A DNA stretch of 52,901 nt, taken from NCBI GenBank assembly GCA_000934665.2, contig KZ538701.1:1-52901 (forward strand). The letters are read 5' to 3'. This document shows, piece by piece, positions 29,006 through 41,286 of this stretch; positions within the stretch are counted from its first letter, which is position 1, and the number at the start of each line of letters is the position of its first letter. The DNA is from Catajapyx aquilonaris (lineage: Eukaryota). Under the pieces are notes generated by a model, which was given only the letters and a program-made list of their open reading frames with translations, did not search any database and was not told the origin of the DNA. A program made the translations under genes and the position numbers.

Positions 29006-29474
29006 TATACCTTGTGTTTTACTCCCCAACTGACCACCAAGCCTTTCAACCTAATATTAGTAGGTAATATTTTATGTTCCCCAAAAAGAAATTGTTCAAT
29101 AAGAGCCAGAAAGGAGCTGGTTAATGAACACCTTAGTGCAAAACATTGCTAACTGAAAAAAACTTCGAGTTTGGATCACAGTAAACATATTCTCAAGTTA
29201 TACAGAGTGTTTTTTTAACAGTGGAAGATCCTGCTGCCAGAGTAATTGCTGGAAAAATATAGGTAAAATACGAGGTGCATTCAAGACAAAGCAGGACTTT
29301 CAGGCATGAACAGGAACGTGATCACAATGAGTTGCTCATTGTGGCAAGTGTCTCCTATCATGGCTATGCAGCGCGAATGTATCAGGCCAATCATTACTCA
29401 GACAGTGTCATCACATGTGTGGGACATCGTATTGTGACATATCTTGGGAAAGGTGTGAAACATGAGGATATCTA

Positions 29475-29986
29475 CAGGGTGGTCGGTAAATGGCGAACAA
29501 GCTTCAAGTAGCGAGATTCCTTGTGAAAAACCATTATAATGAAGTGAAGGTCCGATAGCTCTACGATGCATGGTTATCTCTCACGAGGCCTCCGAAAGTT
29601 GGAGCTAAATCATAATGTCACGTCTACCAGTGAAATTCAAACACTACCATATTGCTACTGTATCCAGTGCAAATCCAGGTGTTGCCAAGCCACCGTTGCC
29701 CACATTCACGCATGTTCAAGAGTGTTGGGGTGGGAACGTGAGGGATGGCACCATGGCAACGCCTGGCAATATCTGGCAACACCTGGCAACGCACCGCATA
29801 CAGTAGCGATACGGCAGTGTTTGAATATTGCGGGCGGACGTGATGTCATGATTTGGTTCCAACTTTAGGAGGCCTCGTGAGAGATACCCACACATTGCAG
29901 AGCTATCAGACCTGCACTTCCTTATAATGGCTTTTCACAAGGAATCTCGATACCTGAAGCTTGTGCGCCATTTACCAACCACCCTG
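29475..29986. mobile_element. Tc1/mariner-type MITE inside the mariner remnant
   Basis: TA|CAGGGTGG...CCACCCTG|TA with >100-bp imperfect TIRs; it interrupts the mariner reading frame at the TA. Confidence 0.8.
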
Positions 29987-30113
29987 TATAGAAGACTTCA
30001 AGCACAGTACGATGATGAGCCAATCAGCTGCAGCAAAACATTTTAATGGTGTGAACATTTTAAAGATAGGCATATATCCATGAGTGATGATCCCACCCAT
30101 GGTGGTTCCAAGC

Positions 30114-30236: not shown

Positions 30237-30769
30237 TTCCAAGCCCAAAGCGGTTGTTGCTGTGAATACTCAAAGTGTAGAGCTCCTAATCCTGGATAAT
30301 TGATGGTAACATGTCGTAAACTTGCAGCAGAGGTGAATCTTGCTCTGGGAACTTTTAACACAATAATTCACGAACATCTGCATTTCTGGTAGGCTATTAC
30401 GGGTACCAAGACAGTATGCACGACCCCATACTGCCCAATGCACTACCTCCACATTACAGGAGCTTGGCTAGCAGGTATTGCCTGATTCCCCTTACAGCCC
30501 AGACCTCACTCCAAGTCATTTCCACCTTCTCCAACCCATAAAGGACTTCCTAGAAAGCCAGCATTTCAGCAGGGTTCAGCAGTGACAACAACGTGAAGTG
30601 GGTTGTCCAATCCTGGTTAGGTATACTGACATATTATATTTCTACACTCAGGCTCTCAAGTTACTAGTTAAATGCTGCGAGAAGTGCATAAATGTAGCAG
30701 GGGATTGTGTCAACAAATAAATGTAGGTTCCTCTCCAATAAATGTGTCTGTTATTTCATATCACTAAAA

Positions 30770-31414
30770 GGGTAAATCCATGTCAAGGCGATCACTCATG
30801 AAACCTTACCTCCTCCGATTTTGACCAAATTTGGCACAGTTGTACCTTTCATCGAGATATGGTATTGGACCAAATTACATGTCAATTTGTTCGACCTGTT
30901 CGGCGTGAGAGGTCACGGGAATTGTCGCTCTCGGTCAGCACGCGCCGCAATTTTTCGGACATTTTCTTGAATAACTTTTTTTCTACTGGTCACATTTGGA
31001 CAATGAGCATATGTACGGGTAGATCATAGAGAGTTGCATCATAATATGTCACTTGTATGAAAATATCGGTTAATTTAAGCACGTGTCATGGGAGGTTATT
31101 TGTGTGACCTTTGACCTCATTTTAAAGACATTGAGGTATCTTCGATTTTGAAAATTGATGTGCCATGTGAAAGGGCAGATCATGGTCTAAGTGACTGCCA
31201 AAAATCAGGATGGGCCCCTCCAGAGGCCGCTGAGAAAATAAATAAAACGTGTACCACCAGCCGGTGACGCATATGTGTGAAGTAAACAGGCTACCTGAAA
31301 CCAGCACCTTTGATGGAGAATTGACTCACCTCTTGTGACGAGTATTGTTTTGGCTGCCTCTGCTGATGTATTGGCTCCCACGTGAGTGGGTGTGTGTGTT
31401 GATTCTTGGGATAG
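30770..31414. repeat. Left long TIR of the Sola2 element
   Basis: Reverse complement of 34073-34725. Confidence 0.92.
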
Positions 31415-31578
31415 GTGTTCTGAGCTCATTTGGAAAGTGTCAGTGCCAAGTGACAGGGTCCTTTGGTGTGTGGTCATTATTATTACCGTAAGTACCTGTA
31501 TTGTGCATTTTTGGTTTACTATGTCGGAAATTTTGCAAGCAGCCCCTTATCATTATTTGCACAGGTTCGTCACTTGCA

Positions 31579-33927
31579 ATGGCATGTTCGGTTGGTTATA
31601 TCCTGAATGAACCATGCCCAAGTGGTAGTCGTGATGTAGTGTTGTATTCCATCAGCAGCGAAGAGGAGGAGTTAGTTCAGTTAAGGATAGGCCATTCTGA
31701 AAAAATTGAAAATGTGTGCGATGAACATCGTGACAGGTTCCTGCGACTCTACAGCGTTACCCATAAAAAGTGCTGTGATCCTCTTGCTATGCACTCAGAT
31801 GATATTAGGAGAAACAATATCAGGCCTATCACACTGGACACGGTTCATCATTCCGCCTTAGAACTAATTCCTGGACAAAAACTATGCACGCCTTGTCGCA
31901 AAGCAATCTCACAGTATCATATATCCTATGATGATGATGACCGTGAGAATGATTCCGAACCTGAAGGCGCATCAGGTAACGAATCTGATGCACCGTACGA
32001 GCCAATTGAGGGTGCCTTGTCAGAAGTTATTTCCAGCCTCAATGAATCCGTTGTTCCGCTGGTGGGGGAGTCTCCAATTGTGTCCAAAAAAATGAAGCAG
32101 AAAAAGTACCCAGAGAAGAAACTGAAACAAATTCATGAGGGGGTCCGAAAACGCCTGAAGATGGCGCCAGAAGGGGAAAAAGAGCAGCAAATTCAGTCAA
32201 GTAGTGCAGATAATGCCGAGGAAATGCTGTCACAGTTGAAGGACAAGTTTAACATTGCTACAGACCGAAGTGAAAGAATGCAGATTTTAACAGTGTTGCC
32301 TCGCAGTTGGAGCATAAGAAAAATCATGGGCCAATTTAACACAACATATCACATGGCAAGGGGCTCCAAACGTCTTCAGCAAGAGAAGGGGGTACTTTCA
32401 TCCCCAAATCCAAAACCTGGAAAATCACTGGATGACACCACAGTTAAAAGCGTACGAGAATTTTTTGAGAGCGATGATGTCAGTCGTTGTATGCCAGGGA
32501 AGAAGGATTGTGTTACAGTAAGAATTTGTGGAAAAAAAGAAGTCGTTCAAAAGAGACTGCTCTTGTGCAATTTGAAAGAAGCCTACAGCTACTTCAAAGA
32601 GCAGAATCCTACAGCCAAAATAGGATCTAGCAAGTTCGCTGAATTGCGTCCCAAAAATGTAGTGCTGGCAGGGGCAAGTGGTACACACAACGTATGCACT
32701 TGTCTGACACATCAGAATGTGAAGCTGATGGTTGAAGGGATGCAACTGAAAACTACTCCAGAATTTGAGGATCTTCTTGACAATTACACCGGCAACATTT
32801 CCTACAAACACCTCATAGCTGCAATAACATGCAATCCGCCTCAGCCCACTTGCTTGCTAAATGAGTGCGTGATGTGCAGCAGCGAAAAGGACTCGGAATC
32901 TTGTGACTACTGTAGCGGGGAAGAACATGATGAAAGCGAAAGCCAATTATTCTGCCCCTGTTGTGACCGGATTCGGAGCCTGCGGAGTGCCATCAGTGAT
33001 AGATTCGAGGAGCTCCAAAGTGATTACATAACGTATAGATCCTGGGTTTCTGCTGACCGGACAACTTTAGAAGTAATCACAAAAGGTACAGATGACTTCA
33101 TGGAAATTCTTATGGAGAGACTGGTGGCACTTCGCAAGCACGATTTCATAGCTAAAGAACAAGCTTCTTTTCTGCGAAGCAAGAAGGAGAGCATTAGAGA
33201 AGGAGAAATTGTCGTTCTATGTGACTTCTCTGAAAACTATTCCTTTGTGGTGCAAGATGCTGTGCAGGGTTTTCATTGGACAAACGATCAGGCGACAATA
33301 CACCCGTTTCTCACCTACTATTACTGCCCTGAAACCCGTGAAATCAAGACCATCAGCTACGTTATCATTTCTAATTCCATGATTCATGACACTATTGCAG
33401 TCCACCTTTTCATCAAGAAGTTGATTACATATTTAAAAACAAAAATCCCAGTCTCGCATATTTCATACTTTTCTGATGGAGCTGCTTCCCAATACAAAAA
33501 TCGCAAAAATTTCCTCAACTTGGCCCACCATCATCATGATTTCGGAATTTTGGCAGATTGGCACTTTTTTGCTACCAGCCATGGAAAAGGACCATGCGAT
33601 GGACTGGGAGGCACTGTAAAAAGACTTGCAGCGAAGGCCAGCCTGCAACGGCCCAATGAGAACCACATCACCACAGCAGAGCAGCTGTACCAGTGGGCAG
33701 AAGGTGCCTTCAACAGTGTCGTCTTCCACTATGTGGCAAAAGAAGATGTCAAAAGAGAAGAGGCACTGTTGCAGGAGAGAATAGACGCAGCCATACCGGT
33801 CAGAGGCACACAAAAGCTACATTCTTTTCAACCCGTGTCAGGCTCTTGCGATAAATTGACTGTCCGTATGTACTCCACGGAAGAGAGAGGGAAGATTGTG
33901 CGAGTTGGTAGACTGAAAAGTGAATAG
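31579..33927 (+). CDS. Sola2-type DDD transposase, 782 aa from ATG 31579
   Basis: Uninterrupted ORF; the track start at 31501 is TTG and the first ATG is at 31579. Catalytic motifs are LCDFSENY (D at 33223), YFSDGAASQYKN (D at 33475) and FFATSHGKGPCDGLGG (D at 33598). Also has a CTCLTHQN..C..C-x4-C-x2-C cluster and an N-terminal Cys/His domain. Confidence 0.9.
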   Translation: MACSVGYILNEPCPSGSRDVVLYSISSEEEELVQLRIGHSEKIENVCDEHRDRFLRLYSVTHKKCCDPLAMHSDDIRRNNIRPITLDTVHHSALELIPGQKLCTPCRKAISQYHISYDDDDRENDSEPEGASGNESDAPYEPIEGALSEVISSLNESVVPLVGESPIVSKKMKQKKYPEKKLKQIHEGVRKRLKMAPEGEKEQQIQSSSADNAEEMLSQLKDKFNIATDRSERMQILTVLPRSWSIRKIMGQFNTTYHMARGSKRLQQEKGVLSSPNPKPGKSLDDTTVKSVREFFESDDVSRCMPGKKDCVTVRICGKKEVVQKRLLLCNLKEAYSYFKEQNPTAKIGSSKFAELRPKNVVLAGASGTHNVCTCLTHQNVKLMVEGMQLKTTPEFEDLLDNYTGNISYKHLIAAITCNPPQPTCLLNECVMCSSEKDSESCDYCSGEEHDESESQLFCPCCDRIRSLRSAISDRFEELQSDYITYRSWVSADRTTLEVITKGTDDFMEILMERLVALRKHDFIAKEQASFLRSKKESIREGEIVVLCDFSENYSFVVQDAVQGFHWTNDQATIHPFLTYYYCPETREIKTISYVIISNSMIHDTIAVHLFIKKLITYLKTKIPVSHISYFSDGAASQYKNRKNFLNLAHHHHDFGILADWHFFATSHGKGPCDGLGGTVKRLAAKASLQRPNENHITTAEQLYQWAEGAFNSVVFHYVAKEDVKREEALLQERIDAAIPVRGTQKLHSFQPVSGSCDKLTVRMYSTEERGKIVRVGRLKSE

Positions 33928-34072
33928 AGACACCACCCATCCGTGCAATCTTCACTTCCAGAACGCGATAGCCTGTACAAGTAAGTCTAAAATACTTCTA
34001 CATCACATCATGTATCATTTCATAATCCTAGGTGGTCTCACATTGCCAGATAGCCTGTTTACATCACACACA

Positions 34073-34725
34073 CTACCCCAAGGATCAACACACAAGCCCA
34101 CTCACATGGGAGCCAATACATCAGCAGAGGCAGCCAAAACAATACTCGTCACAAGAGGTGAGTCAATTCTCCATCAAAGGTGCTGGTTTCAGGTAGCCTG
34201 TTTACTTCACACATATGCGTCACCGGCTGGTGGTACACGTTTTATTTATTTTCTCAGCGGCCTCTGGAGGGCCCATCCTGATTTTTGGCAGTCACTTAGA
34301 CCATGATCTGCCCTTTCACATGGCACATCAATTTTCAAAATCGAAGATACCTCAATGTCTTTAAAATGAGGTCAAAGGTCACACAAATAACCTCCCATGA
34401 CACGTGCTTAAATTAACCGATATTTTCATACAAGTGACATATTATGATGCAACTATCTATGATCTACCCGTACATATGCTCATTGTCCAAATGTGACCCA
34501 TAGAAAAAAAGTTATTCAAGAAAATGTCCGAAAAATTGCGGCGCGTGCTGACCGAGAGCGACAATTCCCGTGACCTCTCACGCCGAACAGGTCGAACAAA
34601 TTGACATGTAATTTGGTCCAAAACCATATCTCGATGAAAGGTACAACTGTGCCAAATTTGGTCAAAATCGGAGGAGGTAAGGTAAATTCCAAGACCAAAG
34701 TGATCGGATTCACGTGGACTTACCC
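34073..34725. repeat. Right long TIR of the Sola2 element
   Basis: Reverse complement of 30770-31414. Confidence 0.92.
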
Positions 34726-36662
34726 AAAAGTCCTTGTACGGGTGAGAAATGTCAAGGCGCTAACCAATAATAATGAGGTAGATGAACAGACATCCACATT
34801 TGCCTGTCCCTAGATATATGCAGCAGCACACGTTACACCTTATTGTAGAGAGAATGCATGGCAGATTGACCCACATAAGTGCGGAAAACGAAATGGCGAT
34901 CTGACGTCATCGTTTCTTACCTTGTTCTTTTTTGTTGACAATTGTTTACTCATACTGTTGTGTGAGGGTATTTCCATGGAAACCTTGATGACATCAGATC
35001 GCTGATTCGTTTTCCGCACTGTATGTGTAGTCATTGTCTAGGGAGCAGGATGCAAGAGAGATATTTATGATGGTGGAAATTTGCAAGGCTATAGGCTACA
35101 TTATTGGGCTCACATCCCACTCCCTAAGCAAGCAATATACCAGATTTGCAGGTCCCTTTTTTATAACTGATATTGCCCAATAGCAGTTATTTTTTTGTAG
35201 CTTGTTGTGCCCCTAACCATGTGCCCCATTCTATAACTACTTCTATATTCAACCCACTGGGGGTCGAATATAGCACGTGCTATAGAATGGAGCACAACAA
35301 GCTACAAAAACATAACTGCTATCTGGCGATATCAGTTGTCAAAACTTGACCCACGAATCTGGAACACCCTGTACTCTTAACCGCAACAGTAATGTCGCAC
35401 TATTATGTGATGGCATCCGCGACTTGTTTAGCATGGGCGTTGCCGAGTTACGGATGTTAATTTGGCAACACTCCGGAATCCACAACCCATGCTAAACAAC
35501 AAGTCGCAGAAGCCATCACATAACAGTGCGACATTACTTTTGCGGATAATAGTACATGCCTGGGTCAACCTGCAATTCAAGATCCCTAAAAAAAAGGCGT
35601 AACGTGTGCTGCTGCATATAGTATGTAGGGACAGACAAATGTGTGTGTCTGGTCATCTACCTTGTTACTGTTTGGTCCCCCATGACATTTCTCACCCCTA
35701 AATATTTAACTTGTACTAAGACAACAATTACCCTGGCAGCAGGATCTTCCACTACTAAGAAACACTGTGCATTAAAAAAGCAAGCTAGAGGATATCTTAT
35801 GTATGCTGCATAAAAATGGTGATCACAACTTCCTCAGTATTACAGACCGACTTTTTAACACTTTTTTTGTTAATTATTTGCCTCAATAATGGTAGGCAGG
35901 TTGTTAGTATGATCTAAGGATACAAATATAACACCAGAAGTCAAGCTGTATATGGTACAGATCAAAAAAAAAAAAAAGTACTGTGAAACGTGCATACAAT
36001 GAACTTGTTGACTGTGGAAAAATTTGTGGCACTTGGCTATGGTGATGGCCTGTCATGGTAGTAATGGTTTGCTGTTAAAGGAGGAAATTCTCAAGTGGAG
36101 AAAAAAATACGTTCATGAACCTGAAAAAACAATGACTCCTCTCTCCAGAAGCAAGCGTCACACTGGTCACACTGGGTCGGAGGCACAGTATGTTGGTGGG
36201 AGGAGAGTAGAGGGGGTCCATTCAAAGAATGTCTCTAATCCAAATGCCAAAGTTAAAAAAAAAAAAGTTATTGCTCCTTTTTTTTCAATTTGCCCCACTC
36301 CACCCCACTCTATGCAGGTTTCACTGGATTAGCAATTATTTACAAATGTACTAATATCACATGGAAATAAGAAAGTTACTTTAATCTATTCCCCTGCAAG
36401 AAAAAGCAAATTTACTTGATCTAGCACAGGTTTCTGAATAGAAGTTGAATAAAATTTATACTTCCATACTGGACCTACTTTGGCTAATCTTAAGAATCCT
36501 AAGAAGCCAGCAAAGTCCAAGCTGTTTGGCATTGATGTATGTTTACACCAAAGTTGCATGCTCTTTTCTGATATGGGCATATGAAAACCCTCTAAAATCT
36601 AAATATTTAATTAAAGAGATTGTAAACTGAGAAGAGCAATATATAGCTTGCTTATTAATTAA

Positions 36663-38274: not shown

Positions 38275-38941
38275 TTAACACTATTGTCATTCCTGGTATA
38301 TATATTTTCCCATCCCTTACAAGGTATGCAAATGAACACAGGGTGTAACAAAAGCAACACACCATTTACATTGAAGCCGTCCAGCATTTCAAATATTATG
38401 GCTTCAATGCAAATGGAAAATTAGATTTTTTTACATCCTGTATTATTCAGTTTCCTCACTCACATCCTGCACATAGTGTGCAACCTTCTTCTGGAATTTC
38501 TTCACTCACTCAAGGTGCTGAAGGAGTACATTACCATCAGCTAAATAATATCTGCCCATAATCCCAATAATAATAATCTAAAAAGCTTATAAATTGATGG
38601 CAAGTGAACAAAATTGAGCAAAAAAGATCCCTATAAAAATATAACCCTCTAACATTGTTTTAAGTGTCAACACATTGACTGCCTCACAAACTTTACAGCA
38701 GACTAAAAATAATTGACTAGTAGATGAATCAGCTATTACCCATTGTGAAATTGGTGCCACACTAGATGCTCTGCCTCACTTATTAAGACTGCACTCTTCT
38801 GGCAATAGCATGTTGCCTGCACATCACAAGTCATAATTTTGTTCACAAAGAAAGCAAGGCTTTCGACACATGGTACTTCACCAAACAATGTCCTAATAAG
38901 CAATGCTGAACGACACGCTAAGCACAGTGCGATGTTGGCAA

Positions 38942-39006
38942 TTACCTGGTTGAGAAAATGCTCAGAGTTGTTCCACCTGCCCGCTTTCGAACCAAATTGA
39001 CAGCCA
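38942..39006 (-). CDS. ADAP1: ADAP exon 7 (MAVNLVRKRAGGTTLSIFSTR*)
   Basis: Follows a 58-nt intron ending ttacag|; phase fits exon 6; short basic C-terminal tail; TAA stop. Confidence 0.8.
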
Positions 39007-41286
39007 CTGTAACGAGAAGTATGTTTAAAGTTTATCCAGGTGCAAAGGCATACGCTATGCTCACTGGCTGTATCTCGTGGTGTCAGCTGACGATCTAAGA
39101 CTTGGCTCAGAACTTCCATCCATTCTTCCTGTTCTGCATCATTCTCTGCTGCCAGAACATAAGTTCTTTCTGGTGTGACCAGTGTAAAGGAAAATTCTTG
39201 GCTGCGAGAACCAACAGGTACACCAGAGTTAACTGCAAATCCTTCTGATCGGTGTCCCAAAAAGATTTCACCTTTTGGGTAGGCAACCTGTAGAAAGTAC
39301 TACAATTTTATACAAAAATTTTAACAAAGGTAGATTAAGCACTACTACAAGCTGTAATTAACACAAGTACACAACATAATGCTAAGGTCGCCTTACTGAG
39401 AAAATAATGTAAAAAACAGACAGCTCTTGTCATCCAAGTGGGTCATGTATTCCAAAATATGAATGCATTCAACAAGATGTACTGGCAAAGTACATGGTTC
39501 AAGAGAGTGGGAGGGGGAGAGAGAGAGGGAGAGAGAGAGAGAGAGAAAGAGAGATGATTTACATATACAGTAAAACTTCTATAAGTTGAACTTCCCTAAG
39601 TCGAAGTTCTCTATAAGTCGAAGAAAATTATGAGCCTGGTTGGTCACAATGTAAAATAATAGGAAATAAACTTCCCTAACTCGAATTTCTATAACTCGAA
39701 TTTCTTCATAACTCGAAGTGATGGCAGGGCCTTATGATGCGATATCAATGCATTTTCGGTCTCCCCAAGTCGAAGTTCATGCAAGTACGGAAAATCTTCT
39801 CATTTCCCAGCCGAAGGGTCGAGAGTAGGCCACATACACAGAAAGGCTCAATTTCCTGATCTCCGTCTACCAGATGTACCGAAAGAAGTGTTTGTGTCTA
39901 TTGCGACAATTGAATCCTTGAATCTAAGAATAGGCGTATGTCCATAACTGAGATTTTTTTTTTTTACACCAAAACAACGAGGAACATTGTAAGTGTGATA
40001 GTGACAGTTATTTTTAAGTTTTGAACACCTTTCGTCGCTAGATATAAAGGTAGGCTTCCTTACAGAGTTCTGTGCTTTAAAAAATCCAAACTTCTCTAAC
40101 TCGAATCTTCTATAACTCGAAGTTTTTTTCCGGTTCCATGGAGATTCGACTTATAGAAGTTTTACTGTACATTAACAATTTTTAACTTGCTCACCAATGG
40201 CTCTTCATGATACATCAGCTTTCGATTATCCAAAGTGAACCACCTGCGTCGATATGCATCACCACTTCGCGGTCCTGTTTTCCAAAGCCATCCTTCTTTT
40301 GGAAAATCCTTCACCAAGTTCTGAGCCAGCTGCAGACCAAATTAAGAATACGTCAATATATCCACACATTGCAATCATAACCCGACAAAAAATGTCGAAA
40401 TATACACATGAAGTTGATTAATCCTTGTAGCACATTTTCTTATTGAAAGACAAATTTGTGCAGAGGCAGATATACAACAGGGGTGGATTTAAAAATGGGT
40501 GTAAGGGGGTATCTTCTTGGTCAGATGACATGGCAAGGTGAGCTGCAAATCATAAACTTGTATTTCCTTAACCATCATGTACCATACCACCTTGTCAAGG
40601 GAAATATCATAATGTAATGTTCTATTGGTGCAGAAAACCGAAGGAATGGTAGCGGAGGGGATATGGTATCCGACTGCTAATCGGGAGGTCCTGGGTTCGA
40701 ATCCCGGGGGCCGCCGACCCTGACTGTGGTTTTCTGTGGTTTCCAATGGTCTCACCAGGAAAATTCCAGGGTCGTGTCCGTAATTATAGGCCACAGCCAC
40801 TTCCTTCCATCCCTATCCCATCCCCATATAAGAGAAGTAAAAACGAAAGTAAGAGTTCCAGATTTAGAAAATATGGTGGTATCCCACCCCCCTAAGGGGT
40901 CGTCCATATACCACGTGACTGATTTTTGGACACTTTTTGAAACACCCTTGAAACCTGCTGCCGCAAGTCAACCNNNNNNNNNNNNNNNNNNNNNNNNNNN
41001 NNNNNNNNNNNNNNNNNNNNNNNNNNNNNNNNNNNNNNNNNNNNNNNNNNNNNNNNNNNNNNNNNNNNNNNNNNNNNNNNNNNNNNNNNNNNNNNNNNNN
41101 NNNNNNNNNNNNNNNNNNNNNNNNNNNNNNNNNNNNNNNNNNNNNNNNNNNNNNNNNNNNNNNNNNCCCCCCCCCCCCTCCCCCCCGTGACCAACCATGG
41201 TATTTCAGCAGACCCCTCCCCCCAAAACGGTCACATGGTATATGGACGACCCCTAAGAGGGCCCATGGCTCTCGCACAGGGTACAA

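Follow-up and report, generated by a model that had tools for sequence, protein, structure and literature searches.

An N-terminal Cys/His module of a Sola2 transposase from Catajapyx aquilonaris resembles the N-terminal half of the SETDB1 partner ARL14EP and may be its source

Introduction

The capture of transposase domains by host genes is a well-known process, and the N-terminal zinc modules of transposases usually serve to bind transposon-end DNA. The THAP domain is a zinc-dependent DNA-binding fold of the C2CH type, and the ZAD domain combines a C4 treble-clef zinc site with a dimerising helix, homodimerisation being its function. Here, we describe a Sola2 transposon located in a 52,901-nucleotide stretch of DNA from Catajapyx aquilonaris (contig KZ538701.1 of assembly GCA_000934665.2, positions 1 to 52,901 of the forward strand; the whole of this stretch is referred to as the window), whose transposase begins with a Cys/His module that is very probably homologous to the N-terminal half of the chromatin protein ARL14EP (C11orf46).

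ARL14EP (ARLE-14 in the worm) is among the few constant partners of SETDB1 (MET-2 in the worm), which silences transposons and lineage genes. To our knowledge, the only part of ARL14EP with an assigned role is its C-terminal Cys-rich domain. This domain (amino acids 209–237) is required for binding SETDB1, MCAF1 and KAP1 (PMC6739341), which supports the statement to that effect in a preliminary description of the window that was made from the sequence. In the experiments reported in the same paper (PMC6739341), ARL14EP without the Cys-rich domain still bound histone H3, and recombinant ARL14EP recognised H3-tail peptides on an array. Worm ARLE-14 aids MET-2 in associating with chromatin (PMC6105299, PMC8850192), and ARL14EP/ARLE-14 have been proposed to assist the chromatin binding of SETDB1/MET-2.

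The reference Sola2 transposases aligned by Bao & Jurka 2013 (PMC3627910) comprise Sola2-1/2/5_HM from Hydra, Sola2-5/6_AAe, and others. According to the same source, Sola2 target duplications are 4 bp long and AT-rich. Among the domesticated human genes named in the text of Kojima 2018 (PMC5753468) are descendants of Transib, P, Harbinger, Ginger1, and Crypton elements, and none from Sola is named there.

Results and Discussion

A Cys/His module opens the Sola2 transposase

The open reading frame (ORF) at 31579–33927, whose product is referred to as P0001, is a Sola2 transposase by its sequence motifs, and the label Sola2 given to it in the preliminary description is correct. Its core motifs (i.e., FF.SDD.SR.MPGKKD, KRLLLCNLKEAY, RPK...GTHNVC.C..HQNVKLM, DFSENYSFVVQD..QG.HW.N.QATIHPF, SDGAASQYKN, and WHFFATSHGKGPCDG.GGTVKR) match, by eye, all conserved blocks of the printed Sola2 transposase alignment (PMC3627910, Additional file 10), the first three of which read FY.SD..SR.MPGKKD, KRLLL.NLKE.Y, and RPK...GTH.VCVC..HQNVKLM, and the last three DF.ENYSF.VQD..Q..HW, SDGAASQYKN, and WHFFATSHGK..CDG.GGTVKR. 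The residues of these signature blocks are invariant across 40 relatives. Moreover, as in other Sola2 transposons, the ORF lies between terminal inverted repeats (TIRs) that are flanked by a 4-bp AT-rich duplication. It also encodes a candidate RNase H-like core with invariant acidic residues. A homology search with P0001 yielded 848 homologues at E ≤ 1e-3, a Pfam scan of the whole protein yielded no family at E ≤ 10, and a sequence search of the PDB found no relative of P0001 or of its N-terminal profile (A1, see below). The ATG at 31579 is the likely start codon because homologues start at the equivalent Met (e.g., "MACSIG..." in P0127).

The printed Sola2 alignment begins 119–371 residues into the reference proteins and does not treat the N-terminal module that is our subject here. 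The preliminary description had taken the first ~115 residues of P0001 for a conserved Cys/His module, and this assessment is borne out by the invariant columns of two alignments and by a confident AlphaFold2 model. The first alignment (A1), of N-termini from 10 close transposase homologues having the full module, contains 17 invariant columns (C3, R36, C47, H50, Y58, C65, C66, D67, H72, R82, L96, P98, G99, K101, C103, C106, and R107), at a module-to-module identity of 33–40%. In the second (A2, 52 sequences), the invariant or near-invariant positions are, in P0001 numbering, C3, G6, C13, R36, C47, H50, C65, P68, H72, P98, G99, C103, and C106. From these conserved residues we infer two zinc sites, i.e., C3/C13/C47/H50 and C65(C66)/H72/C103/C106.

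The AlphaFold2 model of the module, built from A2, reached a predicted local distance difference test score (pLDDT) of 91 and a predicted template modelling score of 0.78, with the helices (H) and strands (E) H4-9, E22-24, H27-37, E45-47, H48-61, H86-91, and H104-120. The first half was modelled at pLDDT 79–97, its helix 48–61 coming after C47-x2-H50, and each half closes with a knuckle, C-x2-H or C-x2-C, from which a helix starts. In the model, this knuckle-plus-helix arrangement is the layout of a treble-clef zinc site, and residues 1–115 are modelled as an autonomous domain of ~115 amino acids made of two Cys/His units. Within each unit, an N-terminal ligand pair (C3/C13 or C65-C66/H72) would meet the knuckle that opens a helix (C47/H50 or C103/C106). 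When the halves were compared with hhalign for signs of an internal duplication, no sequence similarity between them was detected (E 0.27).

In an exhaustive structural search with VIA-align, ZAD domains came out on top, each superposing on one half separately: 1pzw (Z 4.1, 68 residues), 7po9 (Z 3.8, model residues 1–63), 6fp5 (Z 3.5, model residues 64–125), 7pok (Z 3.0), and 7ppp (Z 2.6), the root-mean-square deviations at Z 3.0–4.1 being 2.4–4.2 Å over 50–68 residues. THAP domains (3kde, 2jm3) scored Z 2.1 against residues 1–63. Each half of the model is thus weakly reminiscent of the ZAD of insect and vertebrate C2H2 proteins in having a zinc knuckle pair with a long helix behind it, but it differs from ZAD in that sequence matches are lacking (Pfam ZAD and THAP matched none of the 152 module-bearing sequences scanned) and in its ligands, which include one His per unit, the ZAD site being made up of four Cys.

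The module matches the N-terminal half of ARL14EP

For ARL14EP, we used the human, mouse, and chicken sequences that Peter et al. 2019 (PMC6739341, Supplementary Fig. 4a) give as a CLUSTAL alignment, and all counts that involve ARL14EP were made by eye on that alignment. The preliminary description had set the translation of 31579–31910 (+), exactly as it reads here, against fragments of human ARL14EP; all of these fragments are found in the human row of the alignment, and the proposed ordered match between the module and ARL14EP residues ~5–120 holds position for position. The N-terminal ~120 residues of ARL14EP share with the module all Cys/His ligands, the motifs CSVG, LR.G, C..H, QK.CCDP...H, and PG.KLC..C, and the rigid spacings C-x2-H-x14-CCDP-x3-H, H-x-K-x5-L, and PG-x-K-x-C-x2-C, which are identical. 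The variable gaps of ARL14EP (8, 27, 11, 14, and 28 residues) all fall within the range of the family, four of the five being the family mode.

All 13 positions that are near-invariant in A2 are conserved in human ARL14EP (as C5, G8, C17, R45, C57, H60, C75, P78, H82, P111, G112, C116, and C119), and likewise in the mouse and chicken rows, and 14 of the 17 invariant columns of A1 are identical in ARL14EP, the other three having F for Y, H for R, and T for R. Leaving aside the initiator Met, the majority consensus of A2 comprises 38 positions, of which ARL14EP matches 32, as does P0001 itself. Finally, ARL14EP and P0001 share about 33 identities over ~108 positions, a level in the range found among the transposases (33–40%).

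The specificity of these motifs was gauged with 282,000 shuffles of module segments, in which the Cys-rich composition of each segment was kept. A strict signature was found in 58 of the 141 full-module proteins (including P0001 and the 128-residue P0251) and in none of the shuffles, and a ligand-only signature in 120 of the 141 and in two of the shuffles. P0251 carries the ARL14EP-like motifs ICFHH and PGWKLC, and scores E 5.7e-18 against the transposase-only profile. Compared by eye, it shares ~38% identity with human ARL14EP, and with the transposon-type neighbour nearest to it the identity is 41%. A tree of the 141 module sequences placed it among transposon-type modules without support, and P0251 could stem from an ARL14EP-type gene outside the mammals, as its N-terminal exon, or from the transposon lineage nearest to such a gene. 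A metagenome scan with P0251 returned one weak match of 21 residues (L001), word-index searches with residues 1–125 of P0001 (versus shorter proteins) and with P0251 (versus longer proteins) returned none, and two look-ups in the Atlas directed towards ARL14EP returned nothing other than "hypothetical protein" clusters, which came from echinoderms, molluscs, and cnidarians.

These correspondences make it very probable that the module and the N-terminal half of ARL14EP are homologous and do not resemble each other by chance. The two proteins diverge after the module, since ARL14EP runs on into the Cys-rich SETDB1-binding domain and has no catalytic core, whereas P0001 runs on into a transposase. 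The C-terminal Cys-rich domain is absent from P0001, as the preliminary description had remarked, the Pfam scan having yielded no family. The possibility that the ORF is a gene of the ARL14EP family was ruled out: the C-terminal ARF7EP_C domain (PF14949) is absent, P0001 is therefore not a member of that family, and the N-terminal module alone is common to both.

Distribution of the module among Sola2 transposases and other proteins

The A1 profile was searched against 1.84 billion (1.84e9) representative proteins and matched 1,287 at E ≤ 1e-3, 539 at E ≤ 1e-10, and four at E ≤ 1e-30; the best 150 of the 1,287 matches (cut-off 80.6 bits) are detailed here as the matches listed. Nearly all of them carry the first half of the module. 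Similarity to the Sola2 core (residues 126–782 of P0001) was present in 43 of the 150, including 20 of the 21 matches of at least 400 amino acids among them, and the remaining matches are mostly too short to reach the core, being fragments of which many end in LTVLP.SWS. This also applies to the 259-residue proteins P0127, P0139, and P0143, which were considered as ARL14EP orthologues and ruled out as transposase N-terminal fragments with LTVLP.SWS. PF14949 was found in none of the 150 matches listed, and the single Pfam family found among them was a piece of a ZIP transporter in P0219, whose gene model is probably chimeric.

Counting the query, the 121 closest whole-protein homologues include 10 with the full module, 90 with the second half only, and 21 with neither, and most of these 21 are N-terminally truncated models. 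The second half, with or without the first, thus forms the N-terminus of 100 of the 121, and in half-only homologues typically appears as CCNPF..H...C..CRK right at the N-terminus. A FastTree was built from the core region of 129 transposases (18 full, 88 half, and 23 unknown) and left unrooted. The module label changed three times on this tree versus a mean of 16.9 for shuffled labels, and none of 500 shuffles was as low. Half-only rows are concentrated in one 104-row clade (86 of the 88, support 56), and all other lineages are "full", including P0023 and the distant P0155, P0161, P0194, P0224, P0246, P0156, and P0178; the two "half" rows inside the clade of P0001, i.e., P0009 and P0012, look like truncated models. 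The full-module lineages have 32–50% whole-protein identity to P0001 (A3), and one carrier of the full module, P0007, is from the sponge Ephydatia muelleri. With midpoint rooting, the full module is ancestral in the sampled Sola2 transposases, and its first half was lost once.

Eleven of the 150 matches listed (P0136, P0140, P0142, P0153, P0165, P0168, P0173, P0184, P0223, P0240, and P0245) consist of a full module with a directly adjoining extra second half, and P0197 has two full modules in tandem. The module was therefore duplicated within some lineages.

Origin of the shared module

Positions 31579–31923 encode the N-terminal module of a Sola2 transposase, and on balance we consider it probable that the same module came to be part of ARL14EP by capture and that it has a targeting role. 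The module would be an old and integral part of this Sola2 lineage, and ARL14EP would have gained it by capture of a transposase N-terminal exon, i.e., by molecular domestication, and have it fused to the C-terminal SETDB1-binding Cys-rich domain. Given homology, transfer from transposon to host is the likely direction because Sola2 elements of deep lineages and of different phyla have the module built in, because its second half is near-universal in this Sola2 group, and because the C-terminal domain of the host protein is absent from the carriers among the matches listed.

The opposite course, in which a Sola2 lineage took the module from an ARL14EP-like host gene and so tethered its transposase to H3- or SETDB1-type chromatin, has a parallel in the chromodomains acquired by some retroelement integrases. 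It would agree with the absence of the first half from the largest clade of close relatives (86 of the 88 half rows falling in the 104-row clade), with the equal parsimony of one gain and one loss on an unrooted tree, and with the H3 binding of the part of ARL14EP outside its Cys-rich domain, a useful trait for a transposase. Nevertheless, we regard it as unlikely, as 100 of the 121 closest transposases carry the second half at the N-terminus, every deep lineage sampled has the full module (32–50% identity to P0001), as does the sponge element, and none of the 150 matches listed has the ARL14EP C-terminal domain. The worm protein bears on this point as well, provided that the expression "human ARL14EP domain" denotes the C-terminal Pfam domain, as we presume. 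In Mutlu et al. 2018 (legend of Fig. 5K), ARLE-14 is described as aligned "to the human ARL14EP domain", and this wording, so read, suggests that the worm orthologue may share the C-terminal domain only, which would again argue against a host source of the module. Both proteins might instead retain an older cellular two-zinc module (e.g., of a ZAD/THAP-like treble-clef family) with no direct transfer between them, and the sole structural neighbours, weak as they are, are indeed cellular ZAD domains that fit each half (Z 3.0–4.1). This seems improbable to us in view of the lack of Pfam ZAD or THAP matches in any of the 152 sequences, the lack of detectable similarity between the halves, and the 32 of 38 consensus positions that ARL14EP shares with the transposon family, which is the level of a family member and unexpected for an ancient split. 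Chance or convergence between two Cys-rich segments, finally, is hardly credible: Cys/His-rich sequences do yield spurious motif matches, and ARL14EP was compared by eye, but the strict and ligand-only signatures arose in none and two, respectively, of the 282,000 shuffles, positions other than the ligands (G, R, P, PG.K, and QK.CCDP) match too, and the rigid spacings are identical, with four of five loop lengths at the family mode.

Several observations weigh against the reading that we prefer, i.e., capture of a Sola2 targeting module by ARL14EP. The comparison with ARL14EP consists of an alignment extracted from a PDF and inspected by eye, with neither an E-value nor a superposition, and ARL14EP is not among the best 150 of the 1,287 matches to the A1 profile (cut-off 80.6 bits). 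Zinc binding is presumed from the conserved Cys and His residues. With regard to DNA binding, a Foldseek search with the module model gave nothing at E ≤ 0.001, with a THAP1 match at E 7.3, and neither Foldseek nor VIA-align recovered a DNA-binding fold for the module; the Z values for ZAD and THAP lie below the reliability range of VIA-align and can serve as a lead but not to classify the fold. As the core tree has no root, an ancestral full module hangs on midpoint rooting, and the support of the half-only branch is low (56). Finally, the copy in the window is without a ~95-residue C-terminal domain (see below), and its full function may therefore be doubtful.

Among the papers listed by a targeted full-text literature search, judged by title and abstract, no description of a link between ARL14EP and a transposase was found, and the main text of the preprint by Cosby et al. 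(10.1101/2020.05.07.082677) does not mention ARL14EP, C11orf46, or Sola; its supplementary gene list could bear on novelty. In its reuse of an N-terminal transposase module in a host chromatin or transcription factor, the link resembles the host-transposase fusions treated there (e.g., captures of the THAP, BED, POGK, and SETMAR type; 10.1101/2020.05.07.082677). It would be a further case of the known process by which a transposase-derived domain enters a host gene, the host gene here being a SETDB1 cofactor, and with it the Sola superfamily would join the elements from which vertebrate proteins have drawn domesticated parts. More specifically, it is possible, though we rather doubt it, that a vertebrate ancestor joined a Sola2 targeting module to a SETDB1-recruiting domain and that ARL14EP is a host-transposase fusion guiding H3K9 (histone H3 lysine 9) methylation, which may have started as a repressor directed at its own source elements. 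If true, this fusion would give the human genome its first recognised coding sequence of Sola origin, and a function would be assigned to the uncharacterised half of ARL14EP. The analysis also defines a large domain family outside Pfam (1,287 clusters at E ≤ 1e-3).

Possible functions of the module

ARL14EP without its Cys-rich domain still binds H3, and because of this its chromatin contact would lie outside that domain. Apart from the Cys-rich domain, only the module both looks folded and is conserved in ARL14EP, which makes it a candidate for the H3-binding part, and it would anchor the SETDB1 complex on chromatin; the view of this half as a transposase-type two-zinc module provides a testable hypothesis for the contact between ARL14EP and chromatin. 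In the transposase, the module would target the enzyme to its substrate, i.e., transposon-end DNA or nucleosomal H3. By analogy with other transposases, we tentatively propose binding of transposon-end DNA as its function; histone or chromatin tethering, by analogy with ARL14EP, is conceivable if somewhat more doubtful, and ZAD-like self-association would be an unlikely role. The helical region downstream of the linker could itself be the sequence-specific DNA binder of the transposase.

Architecture of the transposase and its element

We know of no solved structure of a Sola2 transposase, and the features in Table 1 amount to a first domain map for these enzymes. A whole-protein AlphaFold2 model of P0001 was obtained with a pLDDT of 81.8. 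In this model, a disordered acidic linker would connect the module to a helical region that is followed by the predicted RNase H-like catalytic core. The helices of the bundle (209–226, 230–237, 246–253, 257–270, and 286–297) have pLDDT values of 84–94, L237 and W244 are invariant in all 40 aligned sequences, and the bundle is a candidate helix-turn-helix DNA-binding region. The order of strands and helices in the core, from E543-548 to H672-690, fits an RNase H-like (DDE/D) fold, and all 40 aligned relatives have D549, D633, and D674, with D674 as the inferred third residue of the acidic triad. Foldseek matches of the core to retroviral integrase and RNase H folds were weak (best E 2.2e-3, none at E ≤ 1e-3).

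Table 1. Features of the Sola2 element and its transposase in the window
Feature	Position	Strand	Remarks
Sola2 element	30770–34725		3,956 bp; inverted ends ~650 bp each, flanked by AAAA
Left target-site duplication	30766–30769	.	AAAA, read directly; same as AAAA 34726–34729
Left TIR	30770–31418	+	outer 33 nt beginning GGGTAA; inner 616 nt = 30803–31418
Sola2 transposase ORF (P0001)	31579–33927	+	intact, 782 aa and stop; only long ORF of the window
Module, first half (aa 1–62)	31579–31764	+	putative zinc site 1: C3, C13, C47, H50; LR.G motif
Module, second half (aa 63–115)	31765–31923	+	putative zinc site 2: C65/C66, H72, C103, C106; CCDP...H, PG.K.C..CR
Acidic linker, predicted disordered (aa 116–143)	31924–32007	+	pLDDT <50 in whole-protein model; Asp/Glu-rich
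Helical bundle (aa 209–297)	32203–32469	+	carries LTVLP.SWS (invariant); putative helix-turn-helix DNA-binding region
Candidate RNase H-like catalytic core (aa ~543–690)	33205–33648	+	candidate acidic triad D549, D633, D674
Right TIR	34068–34725	-	inner part 34068–34683; GGGTAA terminus at 34725
Right target-site duplication	34726–34729	.	AAAA, read directly

Most relatives of P0001 differ from it at the C-terminus, where a conserved extension of ~95 amino acids (WWLACVL, FLHP.GPS.SF.YP, TGR.Y.L) is present in 32 of 40 aligned relatives (e.g., P0002, P0006, and P0007), partial in three more, and absent from P0001 and four others. No trace of it was found in the window downstream of the P0001 stop codon (33925–34068), and it matched no Pfam family. 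The extension may serve as a second domain in contact with chromatin or DNA, and the copy in the window may be a natural deletion form.

Within the window, the element occurs as a single copy. Its AAAA flanks are of low complexity, and with one copy of the element they are weak on their own as a target duplication. The inner TIR arms (30803–31418 and 34068–34683) are 98.2% complementary over 617 columns, and at the outermost ends 22 of the 27 terminal bases match between left and right before an indel. The TIRs of ~650 bp contrast with the 12–21 bp given for dictyostelid Sola2 elements in the text of PMC3627910. No recurring sub-terminal motif stood out in the TIRs. The outer 33–42 bp (30770–30802 and 34684–34725) are far more diverged than the inner 616 bp, and there may be a functional asymmetry between the left and the right end.

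Hairpin-like inverted repeats adjoin the element at 29473–29988, 35140–35362, and 35370–35556, with arms of 215 nt (84% complementary, 86 nt spacing), 74 nt, and 59 nt, and look like insertions of the miniature inverted-repeat transposable element type. The window contains 228 N in total, the first at 299 and the last at 41166, and a run of N (read as X) lies inside the ORF 40726–41190, at ~40.9–41.2 kb. Elsewhere in the window, a 174-residue ORF (38736–39260, -) includes the stretch FTLVTPERTYVLAAENDAEQEEWMEVLSQVL, which we take to resemble a PH-domain exon of a host gene.

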